A program made the translations under genes and the position numbers. From NCBI GenBank assembly GCA_045807285.1, contig JBJMHR010000021.1, positions 90,612 through 154,611 on the forward strand: a stretch of DNA of 64,000 bases, given 5' to 3'. The notes beneath the pieces were generated by a model that had not been told where the DNA came from, ran no database searches, and saw nothing but the letters and a program-made list of their open reading frames with translations. Shown piece after piece: positions 13,743 to 30,936 of this stretch (position 1 is the first letter of the stretch; every line of letters starts with the position of its first letter). The stretch is from Actinomycetes bacterium. Its GTDB lineage: Bacteria > Actinomycetota > Actinomycetes > JAWWOW01.

Positions 13743-14144
13743 GTGAGGCCAGTGGGACCGACGAAGCAGTCGGAGATTCCGACGGACACTCATATGGCGC
13801 GTCTCACTGCCGACGCTATTGACGGCGACGTAACCGGCGACGCGCTGCCCGTCGTCTGGCTCATGCTTGGCCACGTCGACTACGCGCGCCTTGGCGATCT
13901 GCGTTGGCAACTCCACGATCTGCTCACTCGCGAACCCTGTCGAGTCGTCGTCGACCTCACCGACCTCGACGGCGAGAGCGAACTGACCGTGTTCGCAGTG
14001 CTCGTCAACGCGGACCGGCTGACACATATGCGGGCAAGTGAGTTGATGGTCGTCAAACCCCCGGCACGATTTCGACGAGCGATGGGTGTGTCCGGTTTGC
14101 GCGAGCTACGAGCACAACCAGCGGAGCAGTGTCCGCCCACCTAA
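13743..14144 (+). CDS. STAS-domain protein (anti-sigma-factor antagonist-like)
   Basis: VVDLTDLDGESELTVFAVLVNADRL resembles STAS/SpoIIAA. The start is uncertain (GTG at 13743 or ATG at 13794). Confidence 0.5.
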   Translation: MRPVGPTKQSEIPTDTHMARLTADAIDGDVTGDALPVVWLMLGHVDYARLGDLRWQLHDLLTREPCRVVVDLTDLDGESELTVFAVLVNADRLTHMRASELMVVKPPARFRRAMGVSGLRELRAQPAEQCPPT

Positions 14145-14149
14145 CAAAA

Positions 14150-14312
14150 GCAACCTATTAAGCGATGACCTTGGGGTAAGGTCGACGAGGAAAAGAAACG
14201 ATGCATTCCAGCGTGTGCTCGACGCTCTTACCAACGTTCTATACGTAACGGTTTCGGACGAGCGGCTGCACCAGACCCCGGCGGCCCTCCCTCAAGCGAG
14301 GGGCCACCCCCC
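14150..14312. promoter_or_regulatory. AT-rich (~50% GC) island upstream of atypical LuxR gene
   Basis: This is the lowest-GC stretch in the window (aacctattaagcgatgacc...gaaaagaaacgatgcattcc...ttctatacgtaacgg). Confidence 0.3.
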
Positions 14313-17111: not shown

Positions 17112-18076
17112 TGAGCGCTACACGGATCAAGAGCCGTCGGGCGGCGGCCGTCTGCCGAGCCGTGGCACCGCTCAGCGTGGCTGCGACCGTTTTCGCCATG
17201 GCAGCACCAGCGCATGCCACCTCAGCTGCACATAGCGACGGGTTCGACCCTGGCCTCCCGGAGCCGGTTGCCGTCGCGACGAGTGGCGACAGCCCCGGAA
17301 CCGGATCCGCCTCGGACCCGGGGAACGGGCTGTCGTCCACCGCCGCTCCGGCGGCGACGCCGACGCCTGGCAGCGGTCGCTGGGCGCATCGACAGCAGGA
17401 GCAGAGTCCGGGGCAACAAACCGTGTCGCACCCCGCGCCGGCTGGCCACGTGCCTGCACCCGCGCCGGCCGCCACACCATCGCCGCAGCCGTGCCCGCCT
17501 CCGCCACCGCAGCACCACGACAACGGTGACCACGGCTTCTTCACGGTCAAGATCACAAATCAGCCCAGCCACCACTTCCTCGTGACGCTGACGTTCCAGT
17601 GCTATGACAAGAACGAGACGCAACACGCAAAGGTGGGCTTCACCGGTGTCAGCCCCACGGGCGACGGCGTACCGGTCAAGATCCTGAGCGGTACGACGAC
17701 CTTCAGCTTCGTCGGTCACCGGTCGACGGCCATTGTCGACGCGGTCCAGGCCTATGTGCTCGATCCCACGGTGCTTGGTCCTTCGGTTGCCAACCAGTGG
17801 CATGTCCGCATCAACGTGCCGATCACGCCGGACGAAAGCGCATCACGTGCTGCTCTCGTCGTACTCGGCACCGGACCCGAGCCGACGCCTACCGTGCTCC
17901 CGTTCCACCGCATCCTCGGGGAGCAGCAGGTCCCACCGCCCAGCGGCAGCAGCCTTCCCTCTACCGGCTTGTCGTCAGTGCCTGCGTACGGCATCGGCGC
18001 CGTGGCCATCTCGACGGGCTTGTTCTTCCTGGTCGTCGGCGCCCGGCCCACCCGCAAGTACAAGCACCGGAGGTAG
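17111..18076 (+). CDS. LPXTG-type cell-wall-anchored surface protein with Pro/Ser/Thr-rich linker
   Basis: The ATG overlaps the stop of the upstream gene (TGATG), and AGGAGG lies upstream. Sec signal peptide ...AMAAPAHA/TS. A ~110-aa P/S/T/G-rich low-complexity region. A beta-rich domain. C-terminal LPSTG + hydrophobic helix + RPTRKYKHRR tail. Confidence 0.7.
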   Translation: MSATRIKSRRAAAVCRAVAPLSVAATVFAMAAPAHATSAAHSDGFDPGLPEPVAVATSGDSPGTGSASDPGNGLSSTAAPAATPTPGSGRWAHRQQEQSPGQQTVSHPAPAGHVPAPAPAATPSPQPCPPPPPQHHDNGDHGFFTVKITNQPSHHFLVTLTFQCYDKNETQHAKVGFTGVSPTGDGVPVKILSGTTTFSFVGHRSTAIVDAVQAYVLDPTVLGPSVANQWHVRINVPITPDESASRAALVVLGTGPEPTPTVLPFHRILGEQQVPPPSGSSLPSTGLSSVPAYGIGAVAISTGLFFLVVGARPTRKYKHRR

Positions 18077-18082
18077 CCCGGG

Positions 18083-18928
18083 ATGACCCCGGGCCGCCTG
18101 CCCACCTTCTACGTGGTCGGGGCCATGAAGAGCGGGACGAGCAGCCTGCACCGGGCGATCGCCGCGCATCCGGACGTGTTCATGTCCACGCCCAAAGAGC
18201 TGCATTACTTCGTCGAAGATCGCAACTGGCAACGTGGCGTGCAGTGGTACGCCGAGCAGTTCGCGCCTGCAGACGGGGCCCTCGCTATTGGCGAAGCATC
18301 GGTGACCTACACGCAGATGCCCTACCGCCCAGGCGTGCCCGAACGGATGGCCGCGCTCACCCCGGAGGCGCGCATCATCTATCTCGTTCGACACCCCGTC
18401 GAACGGATGCTGTCGCATTACCGACACAACCTCGCGTGTGGCCGGGAGAGCCGCGAGCCGGACGCGGCGTTCGAGCGACGCGGCAACTACCTTGCCTTCA
18501 GCCGGTATGGCACGCAGCTCCGCTATTACCAGGACCGGTTTCCACCCGAGCAACTGCTCGTCCTGCCGGCGGAGCGCTTCTTTACCGATCCGGTCCGCGT
18601 GGTGCGTCGAATCTGGACATTTTTGGGCCTCCCGCCGAGCGACGTGGACGTGCCATCGGTTCTCATCAACGCGACGAAAGACCGCCCCGCCCCAGTCGCA
18701 GCGGCTCGGCGATTACGGCACTCCAAAGGTGTCGCCGGCGCCTGGAATGTCTTACCGAAAACTGTGCGCGCCCGTGTGAAGAAGGCTGTTCCGCGCAGCG
18801 CAATGGGCACCCAGCAACTCACGCTGAGTGTCGCCGAGCGACAGCGCATCCAGGATCTCCTCCGCCCCGAAGTGGCGATGATTGCGCCGTACGTCGACGG
18901 GCCGTTCGACCGCTGGGAACTGGTGTAG
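18083..18928 (+). CDS. Sulfotransferase family protein (paralog 2)
   Basis: FYVVGAMKSGTSSL P-loop. KELHYFVEDRNWQRGVQWY. IIYLVRHPVERMLSHY. Confidence 0.8.
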   Translation: MTPGRLPTFYVVGAMKSGTSSLHRAIAAHPDVFMSTPKELHYFVEDRNWQRGVQWYAEQFAPADGALAIGEASVTYTQMPYRPGVPERMAALTPEARIIYLVRHPVERMLSHYRHNLACGRESREPDAAFERRGNYLAFSRYGTQLRYYQDRFPPEQLLVLPAERFFTDPVRVVRRIWTFLGLPPSDVDVPSVLINATKDRPAPVAAARRLRHSKGVAGAWNVLPKTVRARVKKAVPRSAMGTQQLTLSVAERQRIQDLLRPEVAMIAPYVDGPFDRWELV

Positions 18929-19010: not shown

Positions 19011-19457
19011 ATGACCGCCATGAGACCTGGCTCACCAGATTCACCATGCTTACGCGATGGCAACCTATTGCTGACCATCGGCCTCCCGGCTCTTCTCGTG
19101 TCGGTTCCCACCGCACGAGGGTTTGCCGCCCACGCGTGCGAAGAGTTCGGCGTGAGCACTGACTCGACGGAACGCGTCGAGCTCGTTGTATCCGAACTGT
19201 CGGCGAACGCTGTCAAGCATGCGGGTGGCGCCTTTCACCTCGCGCTGATCAAGACGTCCGCCGGAGTGCTCGTGGAGGTCGAAGACCCGCTCACCTGTGC
19301 TCCCCCGGTCGCCAGCCGTCCGGATGCAGATGCCGAGACCGGTCGAGGGCTGCAGGTTGTCGAGCAGCTATCCGACGACTGGGGCTGCGAGGCGCTGCCG
19401 GACGGCAAGCGCATGTGGGCACAGGTGCGGGATCAACCGCTCGTGACGACGACCTGA
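19011..19457 (+). CDS. Anti-sigma regulatory factor-like Ser/Thr kinase (RsbW-like HATPase_c)
   Basis: ELVVSELSANAVKHAGG (N-box) and GRGLQVVEQLSDDWG (G-box), about 148 aa. Confidence 0.65.
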   Translation: MTAMRPGSPDSPCLRDGNLLLTIGLPALLVSVPTARGFAAHACEEFGVSTDSTERVELVVSELSANAVKHAGGAFHLALIKTSAGVLVEVEDPLTCAPPVASRPDADAETGRGLQVVEQLSDDWGCEALPDGKRMWAQVRDQPLVTTT

Positions 19458-22243
19458 TCCATCTTCCCGGTGTACTGATCGCCGCCGTCGTCCGCACCGG
19501 ACGGGTCGAACTTCGCGGAAATCGACATCGGTGACTTGTTGGCAATGGCCCCGATGGAGGTGTTCTTGGCCTTGACCGAGCCACCGTCCACCTGAACGCT
19601 CACCGACGAAGTGCTAAACGTGCAGACGATCGTGTGCCAACTGCCCTTGGAGAGACTGTTCGCGCTCAACAGGTCGCCGGGACCGGCCTTCCCGTTGGTG
19701 TAGCAGCGCGCGTGGCCGTCTTCCATGATCTCGATCTTCCAGTCCTGGTCGTCGCTGCCCAGGCCTTTGCGGAGCAGGTCGAAGTCACCGACGGCAGCGG
19801 AGGGCCACGCGTCGAACCTCAGGTGCAGGCTGACGGTGAACTTCTTGGTTCCCGGGTTGAGGCTCGAGGAGTGCGGAACGAGCACTCGTGACATCGACCC
19901 GTCGACCTTCGGAAACCCATATGCAATCGCGGCCGAGTGGTCGGCCTGACCGATGGCGACGTTGCGCAGCGTGCCGTCGTTCCCGTAGCCGCTCGAGTCA
20001 TGCATCGTCCCGTCTGCGCCGTCCGCCATGGACCAGTTGGCCACTGTGACGGCACCCGGGCTGCCCACGACCGTGCCGGTGGGCTGCGACATCGCGGACG
20101 TCGAGCTCTGCCCGTACTTGTCCGTCACAGTGACACTGACGGAGATCGTGGTGGCGTCGTCGTACGTTCGCACGAGATAACTCGGGGCCGTGCTCCCGGA
20201 CTCTTCCGGTGCGCATGTGTTGGCATCGGTGCATTGCTGCCACAGATACTGGAACGTCAAGTCGCCAGGCTGGTATGTGTAGCCGTTGTCACTCGGCGCC
20301 CAGCCTCCGGGCGTCGCCGACAGCGTGTCCCCAACCTCAGCAGTTCCCTGTATCGCCGGCAAAGCTGTGTTCACCGGTCCGGTCCCAACGACGACTCCGC
20401 TGGGCGCGGTGTACGCCGTCACCGTGTTGACCGTGTTCGACCTCGTGACGGCGACGACGACGACGCTGTCGCGGTCGGCGTCCACCAACGTGTACTGGGC
20501 CGGTGTTCCGGAGTTCGCGAACACGCCGGTACAGGTGGAGACGTCGGGCGGTACGACGCCTTGCGGGCAGCGCAGCCAGGTGTACGCCGGATCACTGACG
20601 TTCGTCCCGGACCAGGTGCCGGGCGAGACCGTCAACGTCGACTGCACCGCCGTGGCACCGCTGACCGACGGGTTGACGACCACGGCAACAGGTGCGGGCG
20701 CCACCGGCCCTTGCGACGGTGCCGGCGCCGACCCGGTCGAGCTGGCGTCATTGTGACCGGTGACGACGACACGCACGTAGTCGCCGACATCACCGGGACC
20801 GAGGGTGTAGGTGTCGAGCGTCGCGCCCGTGAGATCCGTCCAAGCGGCGTTGTCCGGCGAGGTCTGCCACTGGTAGGTGAACGTCACAGTCGGCGTACCG
20901 CTCCAGGTCCCCGGAGTGGAGGTCAATGTCGCCCCGTCGACCAGCGCGCCGCTCATCGACGGCACTGCGGTGTTGACGGGAGCCGCTGCGCGGGCGACGT
21001 TCGTGCTCGCAGAGGGCGTCGACGCGCTGCCGTCAGCGTTCGTCGAGGTCTCGAGTACCCGGATCGTGTGTCCGACGTCCCCCGACACGAGCGTGTAGCT
21101 CGAGCCGGTTGCCCCGGCGATCGACGTACAAGCAGCGCCGGTGCTATCGCATTGCTGCCAGTTGTGCAGCAACGGCCCCTGGTTGGTCCAGGTACCGACG
21201 GTGACGTGCAGGACGGTGCCGTCAAAGGGCGACGGTTTGTCGATCGTCGGGGGCGCGTTGTTGACCGGCGGGTTAGGGCCGGTGACGACGACGGCACTCA
21301 AGGCGCTGTTCGCCGCCCCGGCGGGGTTCGTCCCGTTCGAGGCGGTGACCGAGAGAACGAGCGTGTCCCCGATGTCGGCGGCCGCAGGGGTGTAGGACGC
21401 CTTCGTCGCGCCGGAGATCGGCTGGCAGTTCGCCCCGACCGAGTCACAACCGTTCCATTGGTAGGCGTAGGTGAACGGAGGCGTGCCGTTCCAGGACCCG
21501 GGCGTCGATGACAACGACTGGCCTGATGTCGGTGTGCCAACGGTAGTGGGGAGCGAGTTGTTCGTCGGCGGCGCGGCTGCGATCAATGCGGTCGACGCCG
21601 ACGTTGCGTTCGAGCTGCCGGCCGTGTTGGTGCCGGTGACCCGAAGCTGGACCGTCTTACCCACATCTGCGTGTGCGAGCTGGTAGGTCGACGCCTTGGC
21701 ACCGCTGATCGAGGAACAGGTCCCGTTGAGGCAGCGCTGCCACACATACGTGAACGTGATCGGGGTCTGCCCGGTCCACGTCCCGTTCGTCGAGGACAGC
21801 AACGCGCCGTCAGTCGGCGTACCGGACACCGTCGGGGCAGCCGTGTTGGCCGGCGCCGCGCCGGCGGTCACAGCGGTGCTCCGGGCGGAGAACGCGGTCT
21901 TGCTGCCCGCCGAGTTCGTCGCGATCACGCGAGACCGCAGCTGCTTGCCTTTGTCCGCGGCGACCACCACATAGGTCGTCGCCGCGGAACCCGAGATGTT
22001 GCTGCACGACCCACCGACAACGCAGCGCTGCCACAGGTAGGTGAACGTCGGCGCGGGACTGCCGGACCACGTGCCGGCTGTCGTCGCCATCGCCTGGCCG
22101 ACCGTCGGCTGGCCGCTCAACACAGGCGCCGTCGTCAACTTCGGCGCTGTCGCGGCATGTGCCTGCCCGGCGGGGATCGCAATGGCGACGGCAATGACGG
22201 CAGGCGAGAGAACGCGTGCCCACTTTCGGCTCGCGTCAGCCAT
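19433..22243 (-). CDS. Secreted protein with seven ~88-aa Ig-like repeats and C-terminal LamG (concanavalin-A-like) domain
   Basis: Signal peptide MADASRKWARVLSPAVIAVAIAIPAGQAHA. Seven repeats with a conserved T.GxWxG.P..TFTY.WQRC...C..I.GA motif. The C-terminal ~200 aa has the Laminin_G_3 pattern (SGYGNDGTL...FTVSLHLRFDAW). Confidence 0.7.
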   Translation of the reverse strand: MADASRKWARVLSPAVIAVAIAIPAGQAHAATAPKLTTAPVLSGQPTVGQAMATTAGTWSGSPAPTFTYLWQRCVVGGSCSNISGSAATTYVVVAADKGKQLRSRVIATNSAGSKTAFSARSTAVTAGAAPANTAAPTVSGTPTDGALLSSTNGTWTGQTPITFTYVWQRCLNGTCSSISGAKASTYQLAHADVGKTVQLRVTGTNTAGSSNATSASTALIAAAPPTNNSLPTTVGTPTSGQSLSSTPGSWNGTPPFTYAYQWNGCDSVGANCQPISGATKASYTPAAADIGDTLVLSVTASNGTNPAGAANSALSAVVVTGPNPPVNNAPPTIDKPSPFDGTVLHVTVGTWTNQGPLLHNWQQCDSTGAACTSIAGATGSSYTLVSGDVGHTIRVLETSTNADGSASTPSASTNVARAAAPVNTAVPSMSGALVDGATLTSTPGTWSGTPTVTFTYQWQTSPDNAAWTDLTGATLDTYTLGPGDVGDYVRVVVTGHNDASSTGSAPAPSQGPVAPAPVAVVVNPSVSGATAVQSTLTVSPGTWSGTNVSDPAYTWLRCPQGVVPPDVSTCTGVFANSGTPAQYTLVDADRDSVVVVAVTRSNTVNTVTAYTAPSGVVVGTGPVNTALPAIQGTAEVGDTLSATPGGWAPSDNGYTYQPGDLTFQYLWQQCTDANTCAPEESGSTAPSYLVRTYDDATTISVSVTVTDKYGQSSTSAMSQPTGTVVGSPGAVTVANWSMADGADGTMHDSSGYGNDGTLRNVAIGQADHSAAIAYGFPKVDGSMSRVLVPHSSSLNPGTKKFTVSLHLRFDAWPSAAVGDFDLLRKGLGSDDQDWKIEIMEDGHARCYTNGKAGPGDLLSANSLSKGSWHTIVCTFSTSSVSVQVDGGSVKAKNTSIGAIANKSPMSISAKFDPSGADDGGDQYTGKMDQVVVTSG

Positions 22244-24509
22244 CGAGTCCTCGCGTTTCAGTTGGGTCTCGACTTGACAGAGTGGTCAGGCGCCGGATTC
22301 GTACGACGAGGCGCCCAGCAATCCGGACAGCACGGCGCCGCTGGAGCCCGGCCCCGTCACCGAGCAACCGAGGCCAGCTGACGCTCAGCCGGTGCTGCGT
22401 CCGGAGCAGGTGCTGCCGCCACCGCGGCAGCCGGCGGAGTTGGTCGAAGCTCAGCCCGACGTAGGGCTGCCAGGCAGTCCGGTATCCCAGGCCGTACGCG
22501 TTGACAGGCAGGTCGCCGGGGAAGCCCGGGGGGGGTCCCGCGATGTCGTAGGAGTCGCGGAAGCCGCGCGGCGGGTCGGCGTACCGGTGCAGGAACTCGA
22601 AGTCGACGACGTAGACGCGGCCAGTGGCCGTAACGATCAGGTTGCCCGGCGTGAAGTCGATGAGCGCGACCCCCTGCGCGAACAGGTACTCCGCGACGGC
22701 CATCGCCTCGTGCACCACGCTCAGGGGCAGCAGACGTGGATGCCTACGGTCGAAGCGCAGCGTGTTCTCGCGGTACGGAAGTACGACGGAGTCCGCGTCC
22801 GCACTCACGAGCGGAAGGAGCTGGCGGCTACCGGGCGCAAGCTGCTCGGCAACGAACCGCTCGCGGGCGGCGAACCGCTCACATCCCGGTCGAAATCGCT
22901 TCCGCACCTGCAAGTCACCATCGTGCGCAACAAGCTCGATGCGGGCCCGTCGCCCGTGCGCCGTGAGCTCACGGATGCAGTCCGGCGCGGGGGCAAATGC
23001 CGCCGTCAGCTGTTCGGTTCGGCTGATCAGCCGGCGCGCGAGCCGCGGCAGCGCGCACTTCAGATAGTCGACGGCCTCATCGGCGTTGTCGCTCGAATGC
23101 AGGATGTTGCACTGCTCGGAGGCGGCCCGGGTCGCGTTGAACTCATCGCGGATCTCGCGCTTCACGAGCAAGCGAGCGTTGCCGAGCGCGGGCCACGTCT
23201 GCCGCCTGCGCGCGTCCACCGGAGCCGGCATGACGTCGACGGCGACGACGACGATCGCTGGCGGGCCGCCCGAGATGGGATACGGCCCGCGTTCCCAGTT
23301 CCCACCGCGAACCGCGGTGGCGACACGATCTCTCGCCGCGCAGTCGAGCGGGCTCGTGTGCAGCACGGTGAAGCCCTCGGCTGCGATGCGCGCGACGATG
23401 CCGTCGACCGCACCGGCAGCCACCGCCTGCTCGCGGATGAAGAAGACGGCGAGACCGTCAACCGCGTCTCCCGTCGGCCGGCTCGCGAGCTGCGCCGCCC
23501 ACGGGTTGATGACGGCCAGCCGATGCAGCACGTCCCGTGACGGTCGCAGGCCGTGCTCGCTCAGGACTGCGTCGAGTTCCTGCAGCGATCGAGGCGGCTC
23601 GATGCCGGCAACCGTCGCCGTTCGAGCCAGCGCGGTGAGGTAGTCGTGGTCGCGGCACTGCTCTGGCGCGTCACCGCGGTGCACGGGCAAGCCGCTCGCT
23701 GCCCCCTTGTGGTAGGCGACGTGGTAGGCGAGCGCCAGAAACGCGTCATGCGGGTTCGGCACCGGAAAGCGGCCGCGGAGCAGCTCGGCGCGCGCCACGA
23801 TGCGCTGCGCGAGCCGCGGCGGAAAGTAGGCCATTGCCTGGAAGTCGGTGCCGGGTAGCCCGGACACCGAGTAGACGTCGCATGGTTCGGTGCCGGGCCG
23901 CTCCGCGAGCACTGCGTCGACCAGCGGAAGGTCCTGATCGCGCACGAGCAGGTCGAGGTCCTCCCCCGGCGGCAGGTCCGGTAGGTCGTCGTACCACCGA
24001 AGGACGACGAACTGCGCGCCCGCCGCCGTCAACCGGTCGAGGAACCCGCCGGGGCCGTCCGCGGCGGAGTACCACCGTCGCGCCGTCGGCTCGCGTTGAC
24101 GCACCACAGAGAACAGGTCGGCGCGCACCGCCGAGTCGGCAAGGTTCACCTGACCGCATGCCTGCAACCTGCCGCGGGCGAGGTCGCGGCGGATTCGGAC
24201 GATGCCCGCTGGCCGGGCGCGGGTGCGCAGGACCGCGACGTGCGCTGCACCGCTGAGGTCACGGAACCGCAGGCCGGCCACGTTGACTCGTGGATCGAGC
24301 AGTACGACGTCCGTGCTCGAGCGCCGTACCCGAGCGGGCCAGTCGGCATCCGGAGGCACCACTAAGCAACGCTCGCCCCATGTCCGCAGCAGCAGTCCGG
24401 ATACGCGGTCGTCCGCCGTCACGGCGATCAACCGCCCGCGGCCGCTGGCGGCGGCAGCAAGAGCGCCGGTCCGCGCCGGTTCTGCGACAGCAGTGCTCAT
24501 ACGAGACAC
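22236..24509 (-). CDS. Large cytoplasmic protein: N-terminal NTP_transf_5-like nucleotidyltransferase domain fused to C-terminal Kdo/WaaP-like kinase-fold domain
   Basis: N-terminal AGAQFVVLRWYDDLPDLPPGEDLDLLVRDQD matches the uncharacterised nucleotidyltransferase (hhLKG...DhDLLV) pattern. C-terminal LIDFTPGNLIVTATGRVYVVDFEFLHRY matches the protein-kinase-like HGD..PGN...hDFE catalytic/Mg loops. Confidence 0.55.
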   Translation of the reverse strand: MSRMSTAVAEPARTGALAAAASGRGRLIAVTADDRVSGLLLRTWGERCLVVPPDADWPARVRRSSTDVVLLDPRVNVAGLRFRDLSGAAHVAVLRTRARPAGIVRIRRDLARGRLQACGQVNLADSAVRADLFSVVRQREPTARRWYSAADGPGGFLDRLTAAGAQFVVLRWYDDLPDLPPGEDLDLLVRDQDLPLVDAVLAERPGTEPCDVYSVSGLPGTDFQAMAYFPPRLAQRIVARAELLRGRFPVPNPHDAFLALAYHVAYHKGAASGLPVHRGDAPEQCRDHDYLTALARTATVAGIEPPRSLQELDAVLSEHGLRPSRDVLHRLAVINPWAAQLASRPTGDAVDGLAVFFIREQAVAAGAVDGIVARIAAEGFTVLHTSPLDCAARDRVATAVRGGNWERGPYPISGGPPAIVVVAVDVMPAPVDARRRQTWPALGNARLLVKREIRDEFNATRAASEQCNILHSSDNADEAVDYLKCALPRLARRLISRTEQLTAAFAPAPDCIRELTAHGRRARIELVAHDGDLQVRKRFRPGCERFAARERFVAEQLAPGSRQLLPLVSADADSVVLPYRENTLRFDRRHPRLLPLSVVHEAMAVAEYLFAQGVALIDFTPGNLIVTATGRVYVVDFEFLHRYADPPRGFRDSYDIAGPPPGFPGDLPVNAYGLGYRTAWQPYVGLSFDQLRRLPRWRQHLLRTQHRLSVSWPRLLGDGAGLQRRRAVRIAGRLVVRIRRLTTLSSRDPTETRGLDG

Positions 24510-25240
24510 GGCGCGAGGGCGGCTTGCTTGACCGCTTGCTTCGCGCTGTCTGCTGTTTTGTTCGCTGCCGTCACCACGCCGGAGGCCTGCCGAACGACAT
24601 CGGAGGTGACCTTGTCGTTGGCGGCGATCGACGCGTGCACCGAGTCGACGACCTTCGAGGGCCCGGTGACCAGTGGGTGCGCAGCGACCGCGTTGTACAG
24701 CACTTCCAAGGCCTGCAACGCACGGATGCGTGCCTTGCCATAGTCGGCGCGGGCGCTCCGCACACCCGTCACGGCGTGCGCGATCGAGGCGAGCTGAGCG
24801 CGGGTCGGTCGAAGCGCCTTGTCAGCAGCACGGGAGGCAGCGAAGGACGCGGCACAGTCGCCGGCCTGGCCGGCTGAGTAGGCCCGCCCGATCTGACGTT
24901 GGACCGCAGCGATCTCGGCCGTGAAGCGGCCCATGGCGGGACCCAGCCCGGACTGTGAGCCCCGCGCGCGCACCGCTGCCGCGGCGGCGTCGAGCGCGCC
25001 GAGGGCATCTTCGACCGATGCCTGCGCCCGCACGAGATCCGGCGGGCGGCCGGCGTTTCGCCGCACTGAGCCGATCGTGCCGGGCGCCGGCGGTGCCGGG
25101 GCCGGTGCCGTCGTGCGAGTGGTCGGGGCGGCCTGTGGCTTCAGGGCATGCCCGCTCGATCCGCTGCCGGCACCACATGCCGTCACGCCGAGGGCGATTC
25201 CCGCGACCACAGCTGCAGCGCTGCGGGTGAGGGTGCTCAC
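24497..25240 (-). CDS. Ala-rich secreted lipoprotein, function unknown
   Basis: The GTG start at 25240 overlaps the epimerase stop (GTGA). The lipobox is LGVTAC. The rest is alpha-helical and Ala-rich. The ORF-track N-terminal extension to 25522 is rejected as R/H-rich junk. Confidence 0.5.
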   Translation of the reverse strand: MSTLTRSAAAVVAGIALGVTACGAGSGSSGHALKPQAAPTTRTTAPAPAPPAPGTIGSVRRNAGRPPDLVRAQASVEDALGALDAAAAAVRARGSQSGLGPAMGRFTAEIAAVQRQIGRAYSAGQAGDCAASFAASRAADKALRPTRAQLASIAHAVTGVRSARADYGKARIRALQALEVLYNAVAAHPLVTGPSKVVDSVHASIAANDKVTSDVVRQASGVVTAANKTADSAKQAVKQAALAPCLV

Positions 25241-26265
25241 TTGTCCCTGACCTGAGGTGTCGTGATGTCGACGCTCTGGGCGCCGACCATGCGTTCGGGC
25301 TTGGCCAACCACCGGACGTCGCGGCGGTGCCGATGCCAATGCACCTGCTCGGCGATGCCGGCGCGCAGTGAGACGTGCGGCGTCCAGCCCAACAACTGTG
25401 CAGCTCGACTGATGTCGGCGGCTGTCTTGTCCACGTCGCCCGCTTGCGCAGAGACGGTTTCGCTGTCCACCGCCAGGCCAACGGCCTGCGAGATGATCCG
25501 TAGCAGTTCGTTCACCGTGCATGCGCCGCCGCCTGCGATGTTGACGGTGGTGCCTGGCGGCAGGTCGGTCGCCTCGCCCGCACGGATCGTGGCAGCGACG
25601 GCATCGAGCACGAAGGTGAAGTCGCGGACCTGCTCCCCGTCACCGAAAACCATGGCCGGGTGCCCGTCGAGTGCCGACTCGATGAACCGGTGGATGCCCA
25701 TGTCCGGCCGCTGCCGCGGTCCATAAACGGTGAAGTAGCGCAACGAAGTTGTCGGGACGCCGTAGTTGGCGGCGTACAGATGACACAGGTGTTCGGCCGC
25801 GAGCTTGGTCACGCCGTAGGGGCTGTGCGGTGCCGGTAAAGCGTGCTCGTGGGTCGGGTAACCAGCGGCGTTGCCGTACACCGACGAGCTCGACGCGTAG
25901 ACGAACCGCGTCAGGGAGTCAATGTGCCGGCACTCTTCGAGGAGGCGTTGCGTGACCATCACGTTCTGTTCGACGTAGCCCCTGAACCCTCGCTCCCACG
26001 ACGGCCGCACACCGGGTTGGCCGGCCAGGTGGAAGACGACCTCGGCCCCGGACAGGATCGAGCGCAGTTCGCTGCGACCGAGGTCGCGAGCGAGGAACTG
26101 GAAACGTTGGTGCGTGAGGTACGGCGCGATGTTCTCCTGCTTCTGCGCCGGGTCGTAATAGGGGGTCAGCGCGTCCACGCCGACGACATCGTGCCCGGCG
26201 CCGAGCAGCCGCTCGACCAGAAAGCTCCCGATGAAACCGGCCGCCCCCGTGACGACGACTCTCAT
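25237..26265 (-). CDS. NAD-dependent epimerase/dehydratase (UDP-sugar 4-epimerase-like, extended SDR)
   Basis: VVTGAAGFIGSFLVERL Rossmann motif. YASSSSVYG and the YGVTK catalytic YxxxK. Confidence 0.85.
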   Translation of the reverse strand: MRVVVTGAAGFIGSFLVERLLGAGHDVVGVDALTPYYDPAQKQENIAPYLTHQRFQFLARDLGRSELRSILSGAEVVFHLAGQPGVRPSWERGFRGYVEQNVMVTQRLLEECRHIDSLTRFVYASSSSVYGNAAGYPTHEHALPAPHSPYGVTKLAAEHLCHLYAANYGVPTTSLRYFTVYGPRQRPDMGIHRFIESALDGHPAMVFGDGEQVRDFTFVLDAVAATIRAGEATDLPPGTTVNIAGGGACTVNELLRIISQAVGLAVDSETVSAQAGDVDKTAADISRAAQLLGWTPHVSLRAGIAEQVHWHRHRRDVRWLAKPERMVGAQSVDITTPQVRDK

Positions 26266-26280
26266 GTCGGTTCCCCCGGC

Positions 26281-28008
26281 CTACTCGGCCCGCACGCGGC
26301 GCGTACTGCTCGTCGCCGGTGGCAGCCGTCGCAGCTTTGCGGCGGCGGACCGCCCGGTCGGCTGCTCCTCCTCCTGCTCGACCGCTCGCGGACGAGGTAC
26401 GCCCGCGTCGAGGTCGATGGACACCCGTGGGCCGAGCGGTGCCCAACCCTTCTCGCCCAGGCCGACCAGACCCATGCAGGGCAGGTTCAGCCGGCGAAGA
26501 TCGAGCACCGATGCATGCAGTCCGGCACGCGTTGCGTGCCCGACCCGGGCCACGACAACGCTCGAGTCGGCGGCGCTCACGAGCGGGATGACCTCGCCGG
26601 AGCTCATCATCGGCGGGCTGTCGACGATGACGATGCCGACCTCAGCCAGCTGCGCGAAGATCCCGGTCAGTGTTGCCCGCATGAACGACTCCGCGGGGTT
26701 ACGGTCCGAGCCGCCCGATGGCAACAGGTAGCTGTTCGGACCCACCTCGACGAGGAGCTCGCGCGCATCGTGCGCCGTACCGTCAACGAGCTCAGCGAGC
26801 CCCGGGCGTGCCAACGTCCGGTGCACCCGGTCGAGCGTGCGATCGCGGAGGTTCGCCGAGACGACGACGACCGTTCGTCCCTGGTTCGCGAGCGACTGTG
26901 CGAGGTTCAACACAAAGGTCGTCTTGCCGCCGCCGTCCTCGGGACTCAGGATGGCGAGCACCTTGACCGACGTACCGAGGCCCGCGAGCTGCAACGCGCT
27001 GCGGGTCCGTTGGATCGCTTCGGCCGCAGGGCTGTGCGGCTTGGCGTTGACGGCGATACGGCCACCTCGAACGCTGGCCATGGTCGGAATCACGCCGAGC
27101 AGCGGCAACCCGGTGAGGGCTTCCGCCTCGGCCGAGGACGCGAGCCGCCGACGCAACGCCTCGACCACGCACGCGGTACCAACGCCGACGAGCAGTCCGA
27201 GCACGAGCCCGGCAACGAGCAGCACACGGCGGCTCGTCGGGTGCTGCACGGTGCGCACGATGACCGGGCCGGCGACGGAGGTCGGCAGGCCCTTCAGCGA
27301 CTGCTGTGCCCGCGCGCTGCTGAGTGCGGAAACGGTGGACTCGTACGCCTTGGTGGCGACCTGTAGCTGCGCAGCGGTGAGCGCGCTCGTGACATGGCCG
27401 GCGCTGGCCTGGCGCTCTGCGTCAGCCTGACGCGACCAGGCAGCGACCTCCTTGAAGTCGCTGTTGGACTGCGCCGTGAGCGTTGCCACCAGCGACGCTT
27501 GTGCCGCCGTTGCCGCCTTGTTCCGACTGGCGACGTACGTCGCGACGTACGCGCGGATCACCCGACCGGTCAACCCGGCATCGTGATCAGTGAAGGTCAG
27601 GTCGACCCACGTCGTCCCGGTGACAGGCTTGGCGCTGAGCTTCGACAGGCCGCTCACACCTGAGTTCGCCTTGTTTGTCTGGTCGAGGTGACCGGCACGT
27701 GCGCCCAGTGACTTCAGCGCAGCCGCCATCACCGTCGGGTCGGCGTACCGGGCGACACCGTTGCCGCTGTTGCCGCTTCGCGTGGTCGACGTACCGGCGG
27801 AGGCCGCCTTCTCCGAGCCGAACGCCTTGATGTCCACGCGTTGCGAGGCGGCGTAGGTGCGCGTGTTCGTCGTGACCAGCGGGACCACAAGGGCACCGAG
27901 CAGGCCGCCCAGGGCCACCGAGACCAGCACGATGACGCGATGGCGCCAGGCCGCACCGAGGTAGTCGCCGAGCGCCGGCGTGGGATTCATCGACTCATAG
28001 GTCGCCAT
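26281..28008 (-). CDS. Polysaccharide co-polymerase / BY-kinase (Wzc/CpsD-like) homolog lacking C-terminal Tyr cluster
   Basis: N-terminal TM + Wzz-like periplasmic region + second TM. P-loop LSPEDGGGKTTFVLNLA and Walker B VIVDSPP. The C-terminal 60 aa contain no Tyr. Confidence 0.8.
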   Translation of the reverse strand: MATYESMNPTPALGDYLGAAWRHRVIVLVSVALGGLLGALVVPLVTTNTRTYAASQRVDIKAFGSEKAASAGTSTTRSGNSGNGVARYADPTVMAAALKSLGARAGHLDQTNKANSGVSGLSKLSAKPVTGTTWVDLTFTDHDAGLTGRVIRAYVATYVASRNKAATAAQASLVATLTAQSNSDFKEVAAWSRQADAERQASAGHVTSALTAAQLQVATKAYESTVSALSSARAQQSLKGLPTSVAGPVIVRTVQHPTSRRVLLVAGLVLGLLVGVGTACVVEALRRRLASSAEAEALTGLPLLGVIPTMASVRGGRIAVNAKPHSPAAEAIQRTRSALQLAGLGTSVKVLAILSPEDGGGKTTFVLNLAQSLANQGRTVVVVSANLRDRTLDRVHRTLARPGLAELVDGTAHDARELLVEVGPNSYLLPSGGSDRNPAESFMRATLTGIFAQLAEVGIVIVDSPPMMSSGEVIPLVSAADSSVVVARVGHATRAGLHASVLDLRRLNLPCMGLVGLGEKGWAPLGPRVSIDLDAGVPRPRAVEQEEEQPTGRSAAAKLRRLPPATSSTRRVRAE

Positions 28009-28029
28009 GGTTCCTCCATGTGGACGAAG

Positions 28030-28932
28030 TCATGCGATGCCCCACCCGTCGAACGGGCCGCGCACGTAGGGACGGATACGTCGGACGTCAACGGCCAGCC
28101 GGGACTGCAACTCGGCACGTACGTCCGGGGAGATCTCCACCATGTCTTGCAAGTCCGGTTGCAGCGCTTCGCGCCGTCGCAATCGGGTCTTGACGGTGCC
28201 TGGGAGCGCCCGCGCTACGCCTTGCAACACGGGATGACCGACAGCGCGTGGTCGGGTACGGAAGCGCGTCGCTCGGTTCAGGTGTGGTACGTCGTTGCGG
28301 GGCACCCATGACGTGTCGACGCCCAGGAAGCCGAACACTTCCCGCATCGCCGCGCGTGGCTCCTGCCAGAGCCATTCCGACGTGATCACGCAGACCCGAC
28401 CGGCCGGGTAGTGCTCCAACCACTGATCGAGCTGCAGCGCGTAGGAGCTTGCGTCCACGTACTTCGGTTGGCCGAGCAGCGCGCCGCCCGCGGAGCCGTA
28501 CCGGCCGATCCGCGACCAGCCCGCCGGCGGCGTGCCGACCACCGCGCGGCGCACGTCGTGCTCGTATTGCGACCGCATGCGCTCGATCGGCTCGCGTACG
28601 ACGTACACCAGGCGCGCTTGCGGAACGACCGACGCGGCACGCCCGGCGACGCCGGCGAGCTGCGGGCTCTGCGTGTACGTGACGGAGGCCTCACCGCGAA
28701 CCGCTTTATGTGCGCCCTTGGTGAACTGCTGCGCGTACCACGGCACGCCCTGGCGCCAGTTGCGCTCAGCGACGAAGAAGTGCAGCTCCTTCGGCTGGGA
28801 CATGAAGATCTCGGGGTGCTCGGACAGGGCCTGGTGCAGGCTCGTCGACCCGGCACGCATCGCGCCGATCACAAGGAGGTTGGGCAACGTGGTTGCGCTT
28901 GCGGCGGCGGTCATAGCTTGCTGGACTGCCAT
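28030..28932 (-). CDS. Sulfotransferase family protein (paralog 3)
   Basis: LLVIGAMRAGSTSL. KELHFFVAERNWRQGVPWY. LVYVVREPIERMRSQY. Confidence 0.8.
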   Translation of the reverse strand: MAVQQAMTAAASATTLPNLLVIGAMRAGSTSLHQALSEHPEIFMSQPKELHFFVAERNWRQGVPWYAQQFTKGAHKAVRGEASVTYTQSPQLAGVAGRAASVVPQARLVYVVREPIERMRSQYEHDVRRAVVGTPPAGWSRIGRYGSAGGALLGQPKYVDASSYALQLDQWLEHYPAGRVCVITSEWLWQEPRAAMREVFGFLGVDTSWVPRNDVPHLNRATRFRTRPRAVGHPVLQGVARALPGTVKTRLRRREALQPDLQDMVEISPDVRAELQSRLAVDVRRIRPYVRGPFDGWGIA

Positions 28933-30092
28933 TTCGTGTCCACGTGCAACGGCGCGAGACGCACGATCGCCTTGGGCACCGACTGCAGGGCCGGCCCGGT
29001 CACCTCGAACCGCCGCGCTGGGTGCCAGGGAAGGATGTCGCGCTTGCGGTCGAATACGCCGACCCAGAGGCAGTAGCTGCCGCGCGGCAGCGGCAGGTGG
29101 TCGATCACGCAGGAGATCTCTGTCTCGCCTGCGGCGAGCTGCTCATCGCGTCGGACGACGAAGATCGGGGTGGCCGTTCCTTGGCTGACGCCGATCACGA
29201 CGTTGGCCTGCGTGGCCCACGGTGCCTCGACGATGAGTGACACTGTTAGTGATTTGCCCGTCGTGGGCACGCTGCGTCCGGGACCGCTGACCTGCGCCTT
29301 GAGCAGCTGCAGCAGACCGTCGACCGGGATGTTGAGCTCGGCCGCCTCCTCCACCGAACGGCGGTAGTGCCCGAGCACCTCGGAGACCGGCCCGTCCTGC
29401 TGCACCTCGCCCTGGTCGAGCCAGATCCCCCTGGTGCAGGTCGCCTCCACCGCTGCGAGGTCGTGGCTGACAAACACCAACGTCGTACCGGTGGACAGCA
29501 CTTCGCGCATCCGGGTGAGGCACTTCTGCTGGAAGGACGCGTCGCCCACGGCGAGCACCTCGTCGACGAGCAAGATGTCCGGCTCGAGGAAGGCCGCAAC
29601 GGCGAAACCGAGCCGCATCTGCATACCGCTCGAGTAGAACTTCACCTGCCGGTCGATGGCCTCGGGGATCTCCGAGAAGTCCACGATCTCGTCGAACCGG
29701 CGCGCGACCTCCTTGCGCGGCAGCCCGAGCAGCGAGCCGTAGACGTAGATGTTCTCCCGACCGCTCAGGTCAGGAGAGATGCCGGCCCGCACCTCGATGA
29801 GCGCGCCTACCCGCCCAGCGGCCGCGACACTGCCGGCGTACGGGTACATCACGCGCGTGAGCAGCTTCAACAACGTGGACTTGCCGGAGCCGTTCGCGCC
29901 GAACAGGCCCACTGACTCGCCGGGCTCGGCCCGTAGGTTGATGTCGCGCAGCACCATGCGGTAGCGCGTGTCCAGCTCGCCCTTCATCTTGCGCGACATC
30001 CGGTCGACGTGGTCGCGCAGCAACATGCGATGACGGTCAGCCCGGAATCGCTTCCACACGTGGTCAGCGCGGATTTCGCCCTCACGCAACAT
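28911..30092 (-). CDS. wzt: ABC transporter ATP-binding protein, O-antigen/teichoic-acid export type (Wzt-like) with C-terminal carbohydrate-binding extension
   Basis: Walker A GANGSGKSTL. Signature YSSGMQMRLGFA. Walker B ILLVDEVLAVGD. About 150 aa beyond the NBD resembles Wzt_C. Confidence 0.85.
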   Translation of the reverse strand: MLREGEIRADHVWKRFRADRHRMLLRDHVDRMSRKMKGELDTRYRMVLRDINLRAEPGESVGLFGANGSGKSTLLKLLTRVMYPYAGSVAAAGRVGALIEVRAGISPDLSGRENIYVYGSLLGLPRKEVARRFDEIVDFSEIPEAIDRQVKFYSSGMQMRLGFAVAAFLEPDILLVDEVLAVGDASFQQKCLTRMREVLSTGTTLVFVSHDLAAVEATCTRGIWLDQGEVQQDGPVSEVLGHYRRSVEEAAELNIPVDGLLQLLKAQVSGPGRSVPTTGKSLTVSLIVEAPWATQANVVIGVSQGTATPIFVVRRDEQLAAGETEISCVIDHLPLPRGSYCLWVGVFDRKRDILPWHPARRFEVTGPALQSVPKAIVRLAPLHVDTKWQSSKL

Positions 30093-30936
30093 CGGCGATG
30101 CCGCCTTCGAGCCGTTTGAAGAGCCAGTAGCCCACGACGAACAGCGAGCTTGAGACCAGGGTGGCCACGCCGAGCATCGGCCAGTCGGGCGCTTGGTTGT
30201 ACAGAACCGTCCTGCGGTAGCCGTCGATGACCACCGCGAGCGGGTTGATCACCTGGTAGAGCGTTCGCATGCTCGCAGGGACGTCGGCCAGGCTGTAGGC
30301 GACAGGGGTGGCGAACAGGCCCAGCTGCAGAAAGACCGGCAATGCGTACCGCAGGTCACGCAGGTACACGATGGTGATTGCCGCGAACAGCGTCAGCCCG
30401 AGCGTCAGCAGGACTTGCACGATCATGAACAACGGCACATACACCGAGGCGGGCTGCGGCGAGGTCTGGAAGATGAAGAACAGCGCCACGAGTCCGCTCA
30501 GCGCCATAGTCGTGTCGACGGCCGCCACCAGCATGGACCCGATCGGGAAGACCTCCCGCGGGCAGTAGACCTTGTTCAGCACCGGCACGTTGTTGACCAG
30601 GCTGAGACCGCCGACGTTCAGGCTGCTCGAGAAGAACGTCCACGGCAGCAGACCGAGGTACGAGAAGAGCGCATAGTGAGTGGTGCCGTGGTTGACGTGT
30701 GCAATGCGCTGAAAGAACAAGGTGAAGACGAGCATCAGAGCTACCGGCGTCAGTAGCGCCCAGGCAACGCCCAAGAAGGCCTGCTTGTAGCGCACCCGGT
30801 AGTCGCGTTCGGCCAACGTCCAGATGAGCTCGCGCGATTTCCAGAGCTCACGAACGGACGTGACGACGCCCGTGCGACGTCGAAATCGCAGGGATGCGGG
30901 CGGGCCGTCGAGGAGAGTGGCCGCGGCGGTGGTCAC
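30082..30936 (-). CDS. wzm: ABC-2 type transporter permease (Wzm-like)
   Basis: Six TM segments. The LAERDYRVRYKQAFLGVAWALL ABC-2 N-terminal motif is present. It overlaps the wzt start by 11 nt. Confidence 0.85.
   Translation of the reverse strand: MTTAAATLLDGPPASLRFRRRTGVVTSVRELWKSRELIWTLAERDYRVRYKQAFLGVAWALLTPVALMLVFTLFFQRIAHVNHGTTHYALFSYLGLLPWTFFSSSLNVGGLSLVNNVPVLNKVYCPREVFPIGSMLVAAVDTTMALSGLVALFFIFQTSPQPASVYVPLFMIVQVLLTLGLTLFAAITIVYLRDLRYALPVFLQLGLFATPVAYSLADVPASMRTLYQVINPLAVVIDGYRRTVLYNQAPDWPMLGVATLVSSSLFVVGYWLFKRLEGGIADVA

Follow-up and report, generated by a model that had tools for sequence, protein, structure and literature searches.

Enzymes that tailor surface polysaccharides set the chemistry, chain length and export of these polymers and, thereby, antigenicity, phage receptors and envelope properties. 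The LPS kinases WaaP and KdkA phosphorylate glycan hydroxyls, the nucleotidyltransferases (NTases) ANT(2'') and LnuA act on sugar hydroxyls, and FKRP and LicD use CDP-activated donors, while NahK and AmgK are APH-fold anomeric kinases. Nucleoside diphosphate kinases (NDKs) have a ferredoxin-like beta-alpha-beta-beta-alpha-beta fold with a helix hairpin; to the best of our knowledge, an NDK-like domain has not been reported as the fixed partner of an NTase or in glycan assembly, and a literature search for such a case returned no report. WbdD (E. coli O9a and K. pneumoniae O3) is a cytoplasmic multidomain tailoring enzyme of an ABC-transporter-dependent pathway (PMC3482155, PMC11231755), in which it acts as a kinase-methyltransferase chain terminator (PMC3482155), and Wzt reads the terminal caps through a carbohydrate-binding module (PMC11231755). 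In the pseudomycoidin lasso-peptide cluster, a hexose is installed on a phosphoserine jointly by the kinase PsmK and by PsmN, an “uncharacterised NTase” for which ANT(2'') 4xje served as the modelling template (PMC6993621).

The protein examined here is encoded in a stretch of DNA of 64,000 nucleotides (the window), and its likeness to WbdD extends to an N-terminal alpha/beta domain and to a eukaryotic-like kinase followed by a long C-terminal helix. WbdD, however, possesses neither an NTase nor an NDK-like module, and its N-terminal domain is an active SAM methyltransferase, whereas that of the window protein is without conserved residues. Furthermore, unlike WbdD, the family to which the window protein belongs also occurs without a kinase and in Wzx/Wzy clusters. 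PsmN differs from the window protein in targeting a peptide phosphoserine and in being without an NDK-like partner.

Domain architecture of the window protein

Like all features for which positions are given below, the gene lies on the minus strand of the window (22236..24509), and its open reading frame (ORF) of 757 aa runs from a GTG at 24509 to a TGA stop at 22238-22236. An ORF of this length had been reported here in the initial annotation, and both motif strings quoted there are indeed found in the translation (AGAQFVVLRWYDDLPDLPPGEDLDLLV, residues 163-189; LIDFTPGNLIVTATGRVYVVDFEFLHRY, residues 616-643). The alternative in-frame ATG at 24500 yields a 754-aa form that is 100% identical to an NCBI MAG protein (P0001, “hypothetical protein, Actinomycetes bacterium”), and this ATG is more likely to be the true start than the GTG. 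The operon coupling that had been described is also present: starting from the GTG the gene overlaps the upstream lipoprotein gene by 13 nt, which becomes a 4-nt ATGA start/stop overlap (24497..24500) if translation starts at the ATG, and its last 8 nt (ATGGCTGA, 22236..22243) are shared with the beginning of the Ig-like/LamG gene downstream. The ORF is not a chance one, because its codon-position GC is gene-like (GC1 0.76, GC2 0.53, GC3 0.83) and because a homologue search recovered 122 homologues and an exhaustive profile search 1,353 representatives of 50%-identity clusters.

The gene product is a cytoplasmic protein of four modules, which, according to profile searches and an AlphaFold2 model of the whole protein (mean pLDDT 91.1, pTM 0.87), are arranged in the order N-terminal alpha/beta domain, Pol-beta-type NTase, NDK-like domain and minimal RIO/APH-like kinase, followed by a long basic helix. 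None of the curated Pfam or NCBIfam cut-offs is reached by the window protein. The earlier description as a bifunctional fusion of an NTase with a kinase-fold domain thus identified two of the modules correctly but overlooked the NDK-like domain (~350-495) and the N-terminal domain (~24-140); “bifunctional” is incomplete since a third conserved catalytic module, with His471, is located between the NTase and the kinase.

The N-terminal domain (residues ~24-140; 24090..24440) is Rossmann-like, with alternating beta and alpha elements in the model, and is probably non-catalytic. It occurs in 151 of the 254 family members (59%), and its alignment contains no invariant columns. No relative was found in the PDB (best E-value 0.45) or in Pfam; the domain shows no SAM-binding glycine-rich motif, and no match to a methyltransferase was detected.

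The NTase domain, together with its helical subdomain, comprises residues 141-345 (23475..24089) and has the alpha/beta core fold common to solved NTases. The DxD metal-binding motif is formed by D184-L-D186 inside PGEDLDLLV (23952..23960), while D211 (23877..23879), which the model places on the following strand (208-214), is, judging from general NTase architecture, the candidate third carboxylate. These residues are conserved in 247 (D184), 249 (D186) and 250 (D211) of 254 members. PF14907, the family proposed in the initial annotation, is the sole Pfam match of the NTase segment (16.1 bits, E 0.0088, residues 181-203, covering the DxD motif), but the score is below the Pfam gathering cut-off of 31.2 bits. 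A search with the whole protein gave no match to PF14907, which is matched by 9 of 44 family members at E<=0.1 (best E 5.5e-5). Because of these scores, the window NTase is considered a distant relative of PF14907 and not a member. Sequence identity with ANT(2'')-Ia, LnuA and the MenT toxins is 12-13%, and these are single-domain proteins that function in resistance or toxin-antitoxin settings, not in glycan assembly. The phosphotransferases LicD, fukutin and FKRP show a weak structural likeness to the window protein without a sequence match, and they are supplied with donors by a separate cytidylyltransferase instead of an NDK-like domain.

For the NDK-like domain (residues ~350-495; 23025..23462), profile searches against the PDB returned almost exclusively nucleoside diphosphate kinases (best E 3.7e-4). 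The sole Pfam match of this segment is PF00334, the NDK family, with 17.3 bits (E 0.0045) against a gathering cut-off of 27 bits; 9 of 44 family members match PF00334 (best E 0.0028). The elements of the model (E353-359, H368-377, E381-387, H390-403, E417-424, H445-459, E470-472, H476-486) fit the order of those in NDK. His471 (23097..23099), in N468-x-x-H-S-S-D474, is aligned with the phospho-accepting histidine of NDK and lies, within an N-x-x-H-[GS]-S-D catalytic motif, on the equivalent strand; in the profile alignment “NvlHSsD” pairs with “NLIHASD” of the Mimivirus NDK. Of the 248 members with this domain, 246 retain H471, 246 retain D474 and 242 retain N468. The position of NDK Lys12 is taken by R359, and K450 and R454 fall near the phosphate-binding arginine of NDK. 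The domain differs from NDK in being highly divergent, in carrying a unique invariant R-G-G-N-W-G-R-G-P loop and in never being free-standing, since it is always fused after the NTase. Structure searches with the whole model listed kinases only, NDK not being among them, and hhalign against a single, approximate human NDK sequence gave a probability of only 18.6%.

The minimal protein-kinase-like domain (residues ~505-695; 22425..22997) has a bilobal kinase fold, with K537, E550, D618, N623 and D636 (of DFE) conserved in 154, 153, 147, 143 and 153 of 155 members, respectively. The structures nearest to it are those of protein and RNA kinases (Rio, PknB); its best Pfam match is APH, a family of small-molecule kinases. 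The model and the structure search indicate that the C-lobe helices used by protein kinases for peptide substrates are missing. From the RIO, Bud32 and Ark1 kinases and from APH it differs in its fusion behind an NDK-like domain and in the basic helix that follows it, and it has no functional link to ribosome biogenesis. Of the Kdo/WaaP-like kinase that had been proposed for this segment, the kinase fold, which is common to WaaP and KdkA, stands. The assignment to PF06293 does not: neither the whole protein nor the kinase segment has a match to this model even at E<=10, it is missing from the Pfam tally of 44 family members, and it is not among the top structural matches. The arginine-rich C-terminal helix (residues 696-745; 22275..22424), a single helix in the model, might serve in membrane or partner binding.

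Size, distribution and modular make-up of the family

The family of the window protein is large, extends over many phyla and has no name. A tblastn search of a collection with one genome per species confirmed 232 genomic stretches, with carriers in Actinomycetota, Bacillales, Planctomycetota, Cyanobacteria, Gemmatimonadota and Proteobacteria. Of 254 members, 248 contain the NDK-like domain and 61% the kinase, and the architectures comprise N-domain, core and kinase (78 members), core and kinase (76), N-domain and core (67) and the core alone (27). The pair of NTase and NDK-like domain is the constant core of the family, to which the N-terminal domain and the kinase are independently optional additions. 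Conservation is at least 92% in each of the three catalytic centres and at least 97% in those of the NTase and the NDK-like domain. Further fusions join the core to the glycosyltransferases GT41 and GT4, to an FkbM methyltransferase and to a flippase, i.e., TPR-GT41-FkbM-core (P0237), TPR-GT41-core-kinase (P0246), GT4-N-core (P0178) and Wzx flippase-core-kinase (P0051). The core is without a name or a Pfam model even though it is widespread, and a single chain can carry three nucleotide-using active sites. Carriers have been cultured in Cellulosimicrobium, Georgenia, Planococcus, Actinotalea and Lacipirellula, candidates being C. cellulans NBRC 15516, P. citreus DSM 20549, A. caeni and L. limnantheis, which makes the family directly testable.

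Genomic neighbourhood

In the window, the gene belongs to a tightly packed operon in which intergenic gaps and overlaps do not exceed 22 nt. Pfam searches identified the operon genes upstream of it (24497..30936) as Wzm (30082-30936), Wzt (28911-30092; 393 aa), a sulfotransferase (28030-28932), a Wzz/P-loop protein (26281-28008) and an epimerase (25237-26265); the lipoprotein gene (24497-25240) lies directly upstream of the gene studied here. The gene order from Wzm to the lipoprotein is also found in the two closest relatives (loci L007 and L008). The downstream gene (19433..22243) encodes a protein of 936 aa that is secreted and contains Ig-like repeats and a Laminin_G_3 domain (Pfam IG_AIR9, SCAB-Ig and Laminin_G_3) and is a conserved downstream partner only in these two relatives.

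Across the family, the gene immediately upstream codes for a GT2 in 13 and for an ABC ATPase in 8 of 42 loci, and the gene immediately downstream codes for a GT2 in 8 and for Wzx in 3 of 36 loci. Within 10 kb, GT2 genes occur in 18, GT4 genes in 17 and Wzt-like genes in 13 of 44 locus clusters, and many family members are found in Wzx/Wzy-type clusters. A Kdo-kinase/GT2 fusion is encoded as a separate protein near a short-form family member in locus L006.

Possible functions

Because the family adjoins genes for the building and export of sugar chains, the enzyme is likely to decorate a cell-surface polysaccharide with a phosphate-based group. The more specific reading that we favour, at somewhat less than even odds, is that of a glycan-tailoring enzyme at the cytoplasmic face of the membrane, which would carry out phosphate-centred chemistry on a polyprenol-linked glycan before its export; this is suggested by sequence, model and analogy. 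The kinase domain would phosphorylate a sugar hydroxyl, as do WbdD, WaaP and KdkA, and the NTase would move a nucleotide-derived group onto a sugar hydroxyl or onto the phosphate made by the kinase, for which ANT(2'') and LnuA, FKRP and LicD and, with its phosphoserine acceptor, PsmN provide precedents. The NDK-like domain may convert NDP to NTP for the NTase via a phospho-His471 intermediate. The modified glycan would then be exported by the Wzm/Wzt ABC transporter of a cluster that appears to be devoted to a sulfated glycan, and in the window operon the product may double as a non-reducing-end cap that licenses export.

Within this scheme, the NTase and the NDK-like domain could form a two-step unit, in which the phospho-histidine of the latter makes NTP in cis and the Pol-beta NTase nucleotidylylates, pyrophosphate-activates or caps the lipid-linked glycan. 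This is doubtful, with a chance of perhaps one in four. If true, it would represent a chemistry of glycan modification so far undescribed, present in more than 1,000 protein clusters and at least six phyla; in the window operon, a kinase and the export of a sulfated polymer by an ABC transporter would be coupled to it. Such new chemistry would extend glycan biosynthesis by one type of reaction and put the NDK fold to a new use.

An NDK dedicated to a neighbouring NTase would fit equally well with the supply or regeneration of nucleotide sugars, in which the kinase would form a sugar-1-phosphate, as do NahK and AmgK, the NTase would convert this with NTP to an NDP-sugar, and the NDK-like domain would recycle the NDP released by GT2 and GT4 enzymes, providing a dedicated donor pool for the cluster. 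The constant pairing of NTase and NDK-like domain would be understood best if NTP were both produced and consumed in cis, GT2 genes are the most frequent direct neighbours, and the small-molecule kinases of APH provide the best Pfam match of the kinase segment. Moreover, kinase-pyrophosphorylase fusions are known from sugar salvage, i.e., FKP (PMC11982464) and glucuronokinase/pyrophosphorylase (PMC3938481). Yet the kinase is missing from 39% of the members, and the Wzx flippase and TPR-GT41 fusions, as well as the basic C-terminal helix, suggest a membrane-bound glycan and not soluble precursors as the substrate. The sugar-1-phosphate nucleotidylyltransferases known to us all have the PF00483-type fold, which differs from that of Pol-beta, and we know of no Pol-beta NTase whose acceptor is a phosphate monoester on a free sugar. 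It seems, overall, rather unlikely that supply is the function, at about one chance in five; if it were, it would account for the way in which some clusters ensure their supply of nucleotide-sugar donors.

Less probable again, though specific to the window, is a role as chain terminator, in which the kinase, with or without the NTase, would cap the non-reducing end of the polymer and halt elongation, the cap being recognised by the C-terminal domain of Wzt as in the WbdD paradigm (PMC3482155, PMC11231755). The gene shares an operon with Wzm/Wzt, Wzt has a C-terminal extension of ~140 aa, inspection of the cluster revealed no second kinase and no methyltransferase, and in the model a long helix follows the kinase. 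However, the match of the extension to Wzt_C is weak (E 0.19), and the helix comprises ~50 residues, the extended coiled-coil ruler of WbdD being far longer (PMC11231755). WbdD is also not among the top structural matches of the model, a cap might just as well be made by the sulfotransferase adjoining Wzt, and an Actinotalea locus contains a separate WbdD-like methyltransferase-APH protein beside its family member. Because many members are located in Wzx/Wzy-type clusters, where a terminator is not needed, termination cannot be the general function.

The initial annotation had connected the protein to a PqqD-like and an HprK-like gene across the divergent promoter, proposing that the bifunctional NTase/kinase acts with this pair, in an “HPr-rel-A” type of context, on a peptide or pathway intermediate. 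The two genes are indeed divergent in the window and syntenic in L007 and L008, and in lasso-peptide clusters an HprK-type kinase and a PqqD-like B1 protein are found together with an uncharacterised NTase and, in some cases, a sulfotransferase (PMC8498205, PMC6993621), i.e., a comparable kinase and NTase tailoring. The link is, however, not a property of the family, since a PqqD-like gene occurs within 10 kb in 1 and an HprK-like gene in 2 of 44 dereplicated loci. Both window proteins score below the curated cut-offs (HprK-like against TIGR04352, 35.3 versus 200 bits, E 6.4e-9; PqqD-like, 21.9 versus 23.4 bits), and the pair heads a glycosyltransferase/Wzy_C/Bac_transf operon. No lasso or other RiPP machinery was found in the window, with neither a lasso cyclase nor a B2 protease among its genes. 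We consider this association improbable.

Hardly better placed, and if anything a shade more improbable, is an enzyme that phosphorylates or nucleotidylylates a protein before export, either the co-translated Ig-like/LamG protein or another protein of the cluster. The 8-nt translational overlap with the LamG gene, the presence of LamG proteins near the short-form member in L006 and the resemblance of the kinase to Rio and PknB would be consistent with this. Still, 4 of 44 locus clusters have an Ig-like/LamG homologue within 10 kb and 2 of 36 loci have one directly downstream, and the minimal kinase is without the C-lobe helices for peptide substrates. The target, moreover, has a signal peptide and would need to be modified in an unfolded state in the cytoplasm. 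A toxin or defence-type NTase (MenT- or AbiEii-like), for which PADLOC gave weak kinase-loop matches only and for which neither an antitoxin-like partner gene nor a homologue on a plasmid was found, can scarcely be credited because of the genomic context, which is consistently that of glycan biosynthesis.

The gene and its modules

The open reading frame at 22236-24509 (minus strand) is a real gene, with homologues numbering in the hundreds in homologue and profile searches and a codon-position GC that is normal for a genome of ~68% GC. Translation from a GTG start gives 757 aa; if it begins instead at the in-frame ATG at 24500, the product has 754 aa and is identical to P0001, an NCBI MAG protein whose sole annotation is ‘hypothetical protein, Actinomycetes bacterium’. 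The overlap with the upstream lipoprotein gene is a classic ATGA for the ATG start and 13 nt, as reported in the initial annotation, for the GTG start. Its other observations were likewise confirmed, i.e., the 8 nt (ATGGCTGA) shared by the stop and the start of the downstream Ig-like/LamG gene, and the two peptide strings it quoted, which were located at residues 163-189 and 616-643.

A scan of the whole protein against Pfam gave zero matches, and one against NCBIfam gave weak matches only, to the kinase loop of lanthionine synthetases (LanL/LanKC). Because these whole-protein scans were uninformative, domain-wise scans and family-wide tallies were used. An AlphaFold2 model built from an alignment of 44 full-length homologues (mean pLDDT 91.1, pTM 0.87) and the alignment itself divide the protein into four predicted modules plus a tail. 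The first (residues ~24-140) is an alpha/beta domain without a single invariant position and without a relative in the PDB (best E 0.45) or Pfam, which we treated as non-catalytic. Its family consensus V-L-D-V-G-A looks like methyltransferase motif I, but this is mere resemblance; lacking both a relative and an invariant residue, it was rejected as a methyltransferase and retained as an ‘alpha/beta domain’.

Residues 141-345 form a Pol-beta-type nucleotidyltransferase (NTase) with a helical subdomain. Its sole Pfam match, PF14907, is sub-threshold (E 0.0088; 16.1 bits versus a cut-off of 31.2) and is shared by 9 of the 44 relatives (best E 5.5e-5). Of 254 family proteins, 247-250 keep the Asp triad D184, D186 and D211, and H263, H267 and K268 are conserved to the same extent; together with the fold, the triad bears out the earlier assignment to the NTases. 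The earlier assignment of a Kdo/WaaP-like kinase was right at the level of the fold, but the kinase segment of the window protein did not match PF06293 at any threshold. This minimal protein-kinase-like domain (residues ~505-695) has the kinase domain of ThurKC as its top Foldseek match; the family profile reached E 1e-7 against Ser/Thr kinases of the PDB, 25 of the 44 relatives matched Pkinase, and among Pfam models the segment itself matched APH best (E 3.3e-4), then Kinase-like and ABC1. K537, E550, D618, N623 and D636 are all present and are kept in 143-154 of the 155 members with a kinase. The tail (residues 696-745) is, by sequence and model, a long single helix rich in arginine.

The initial annotation described two domains, NTase and kinase; both are present, but the segment between them (residues ~350-495), which sequence profiles and topology suggest to be like nucleoside diphosphate kinase (NDK), had been missed. 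In a search of the entire set of PDB sequences, the profile of the segment matched nearly exclusively NDKs (best E 3.7e-4), in an alignment that is colinear at both ends and that places N468-x-x-H471-S-S-D474 onto the NDK catalytic motif N-x-x-H-[GA]-S-D, which is thus present in the protein. The sole Pfam match is PF00334 (E 0.0045), a match shared by 9 of the 44 relatives. The model shows strands and helices in an order that fits the NDK fold as generally known and places His471 on strand four. Of 248 members, 246 keep H471 and 246 keep D474, and K450 and R454 are equally conserved; R359 presumably occupies the place of Lys12 of NDK, and an invariant loop, R-G-G-N-W-G-R-G-P, has no counterpart there. 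An hhalign comparison with a single human NDK sequence, on which we place no weight, aligned only the N-terminal beta-alpha-beta unit (18.6% probability).

Family size and composition

An exhaustive profile search with an alignment of short homologues (N-domain, NTase and NDK-like domain) returned, at E<=1e-3, 1,353 representatives of 50%-identity clusters, 709 of which reached E<=1e-30, and tblastn of one-genome-per-species data confirmed 232 stretches encoding a relative. Relatives occur in the Actinomycetota (Georgenia, Cellulosimicrobium, Janibacter, Actinotalea, Pengzhenrongella) and in Bacillales (Planococcus, Lentibacillus), Planctomycetota, Cyanobacteria, Gemmatimonadota, and Proteobacteria; a plasmid search gave zero homologues. 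Among 254 collected members, for which domain presence was cross-checked pairwise, the NTase was present in all 254, the NDK-like domain in 248, the kinase in 155, and the N-domain in 151. The NTase/NDK-like core was accompanied by both other domains in 78 members, by the kinase in 76 and by the N-domain in 67, and stood alone in 27. From these tallies, the NTase and NDK-like domains are the constant unit and the kinase is an accessory.

We read the protein as working like known glycan-tailoring enzymes, but it belongs to none of the curated families. It falls within the structural and catalytic-residue definitions of Pol-beta NTases and protein-kinase-like enzymes; matches to PF14907, PF00334, and Pkinase/APH are below the cut-offs, as is that of the HprK-like protein of the window to TIGR04352. 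None of the homologue records, in any source, carried a functional name for the family, and literature searches on PF14907, NTP_transf_5 and ‘NDK-like domain’ returned nothing on it. The component folds are already known, but their fixed NTase/NDK-like pairing in glycan clusters appears to be undescribed.

Genomic context and possible function

Family loci (88, dereplicated to 44 locus clusters) were compared using neighbour genes called by a longest-ORF rule with Pfam confirmation. The gene immediately upstream encodes a GT2 in 13 of 42 cases, an ABC ATPase in 8 and an epimerase in 4; that immediately downstream a GT2 in 8 of 36, a Wzx flippase in 3 and a LamG/Ig protein in 2. Using the window’s own proteins in tblastn, GT2 was found within 10 kb in 18 of the 44 clusters, GT4 in 17, Wzt-like in 13, epimerase in 9, Bac_transf in 7, sulfotransferase in 4-5, and Ig/LamG in 4. 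The core is also naturally fused to TPR, GT41 and an FkbM methyltransferase, to TPR and GT41 (the kinase being present as well), to GT4, and to a Wzx-type flippase. Apparent fusions of 1,200 aa in Planococcus were discarded as a stop read-through artefact, their downstream part being a separate Wzx-type flippase gene. The loci inspected in Actinotalea, Longimicrobiales and others are clearly clusters for polysaccharides, some with Wzm/Wzt and some with Wzx/Wzy, and a distant short-form member has a Kdo-kinase/GT2 fusion and two LamG proteins in its vicinity. The association with glycan assembly and export genes, physical fusions included, is firm.

One confidently modelled chain carries three conserved, predicted nucleotide-using active sites, and we tentatively favour a phosphate-centred scheme of glycan tailoring. 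The protein, which lacks a signal peptide and would use ATP and NTPs as substrates, is probably cytoplasmic; the flippase and glycosyltransferase fusions and the basic helix suggest that it acts on a membrane-bound, polyprenol-linked glycan. The kinase would phosphorylate a sugar hydroxyl, as does that of WbdD (PMC3482155). The NTase may transfer a group derived from a nucleotide, either to a hydroxyl of the sugar or to the phosphate made by the kinase. Sugar hydroxyls are the acceptors used by ANT(2'') and LnuA. The ‘uncharacterised NTase’ PsmN, for which the same ANT(2'') structure served as modelling template, adds a hexose to kinase-made phosphoserine (PMC6993621, PMC8498205). The NDK-like domain would supply the NTP via phospho-His471.

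The neighbouring glycosyltransferases also enter the main rival, in which the protein is a nucleotide-sugar supply module composed of an anomeric kinase, a pyrophosphorylase-like NTase and an NDK regenerating the NDP they release; we consider this rather unlikely. In the ABC-transporter operon of the window, the product of the favoured tailoring scheme may double as a terminal cap that licenses export, following an established paradigm (PMC11231755); since many members reside in Wzx/Wzy clusters, this role is not general for the family. A WbdD-like chain terminator specific to this operon seems quite improbable. Wzt has an extra C-terminal domain (149 aa, 28914-29360, minus strand) whose match to Wzt_C is no better than E 0.19; it may represent a cap-binding module that has diverged. 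At the Actinotalea caeni locus, a Wzm/Wzt (Wzt_C) cluster, the family member is followed by a GT2 gene and then by the gene of a further, WbdD-like protein of 559 aa (13314-14993 of that locus), which matches methyltransferases and APH weakly, so the family member is not simply a substitute for a WbdD-type terminator.

The link that the initial annotation drew to the PqqD/HprK pair (HPr-rel-A context) was not upheld and is very unlikely: the pair is syntenic in the two closest relatives, but within 10 kb PqqD-like and HprK-like proteins occur in only 1 and 2 of the 44 clusters, respectively, and both window proteins are below the curated cut-offs. That the LamG protein, a neighbour in few loci, is the target of modification is likewise highly improbable. 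A MenT-like toxin is scarcely credible, PADLOC matches for a defence or toxin role being kinase-loop noise only; a lasso/RiPP role was rejected as the window’s genes include no cyclase and no B2 protease.

The local cluster

The gene is the seventh of eight closely packed minus-strand genes, in the order Wzm, Wzt, sulfotransferase, Wzz/P-loop protein, epimerase, lipoprotein, family member, and Ig-like/LamG secreted protein. The divergent plus-strand operon encodes PqqD-like and HprK-like proteins, a GT4, a Wzy_C ligase-like protein, a Bac_transf initiating transferase, a GT2, a second GT4, an unknown protein, a third GT4, and a sulfotransferase. The exact gene order is retained in the two closest relatives (64% and 50% identity); in one of these (L008) a fused ATP-sulfurylase/APS-kinase replaces the lipoprotein directly upstream of the family member. 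The conserved order and this enzyme indicate that the cluster makes a sulfated glycan by the ABC-transporter route. Together with four sulfotransferase genes in one ~25-kb cluster (16194-17111, 18083-18928 and 40108-41028, plus strand; 28030-28932, minus strand), the enzyme points to a heavily sulfated glycan, which to our knowledge is unusual for Actinomycetota.

The PqqD-like (30983-31447) and P-loop HprK-like (31440-32321) genes, both on the plus strand, head a glycosyltransferase/Wzy_C/Bac_transf operon, not a peptide-maturation cluster. The O-antigen-ligase-like Wzy_C protein (33522-34829, plus strand) lies in a monoderm actinomycete cluster with Wzm/Wzt and a Bac_transf initiating enzyme, a layout reminiscent of clusters for the O-glycosylation of S-layer proteins; the glycan could be accepted by the Ig/LamG or LPSTG proteins. 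The former (19433-22243, minus strand) is a secreted protein of 936 aa with ~7 Ser/Thr-rich Ig-like repeats (AIR9/SCAB-Ig type) and a C-terminal Laminin_G_3 domain, and its gene has an atypical composition (GC1 0.56 < GC2 0.61). The latter, a surface protein (17108-18076, plus strand, within a listed ORF at 16724-18076), carries a signal peptide (MSATRIKSRRAAAVCRAVAPLSVAATVFAMAAPAHA), and its C-terminus has an LPSTG sortase motif, then a membrane helix and a basic tail; its gene has a sulfotransferase gene on either side, and the protein could carry the glycan while anchored in the cell wall.

The Wzz/P-loop (BY-kinase-like) protein (26281-28008, minus strand) has no obvious C-terminal tyrosine cluster; a Y_phosphatase3 tyrosine phosphatase (12840-13634, minus strand) is encoded ~12.6 kb away. 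At the end of the glycan cluster, a 610-aa ORF (41025-42857, minus strand) with a strong GC3 (0.87), a low GC1 (0.51) and no Pfam match may encode another repetitive secreted protein.
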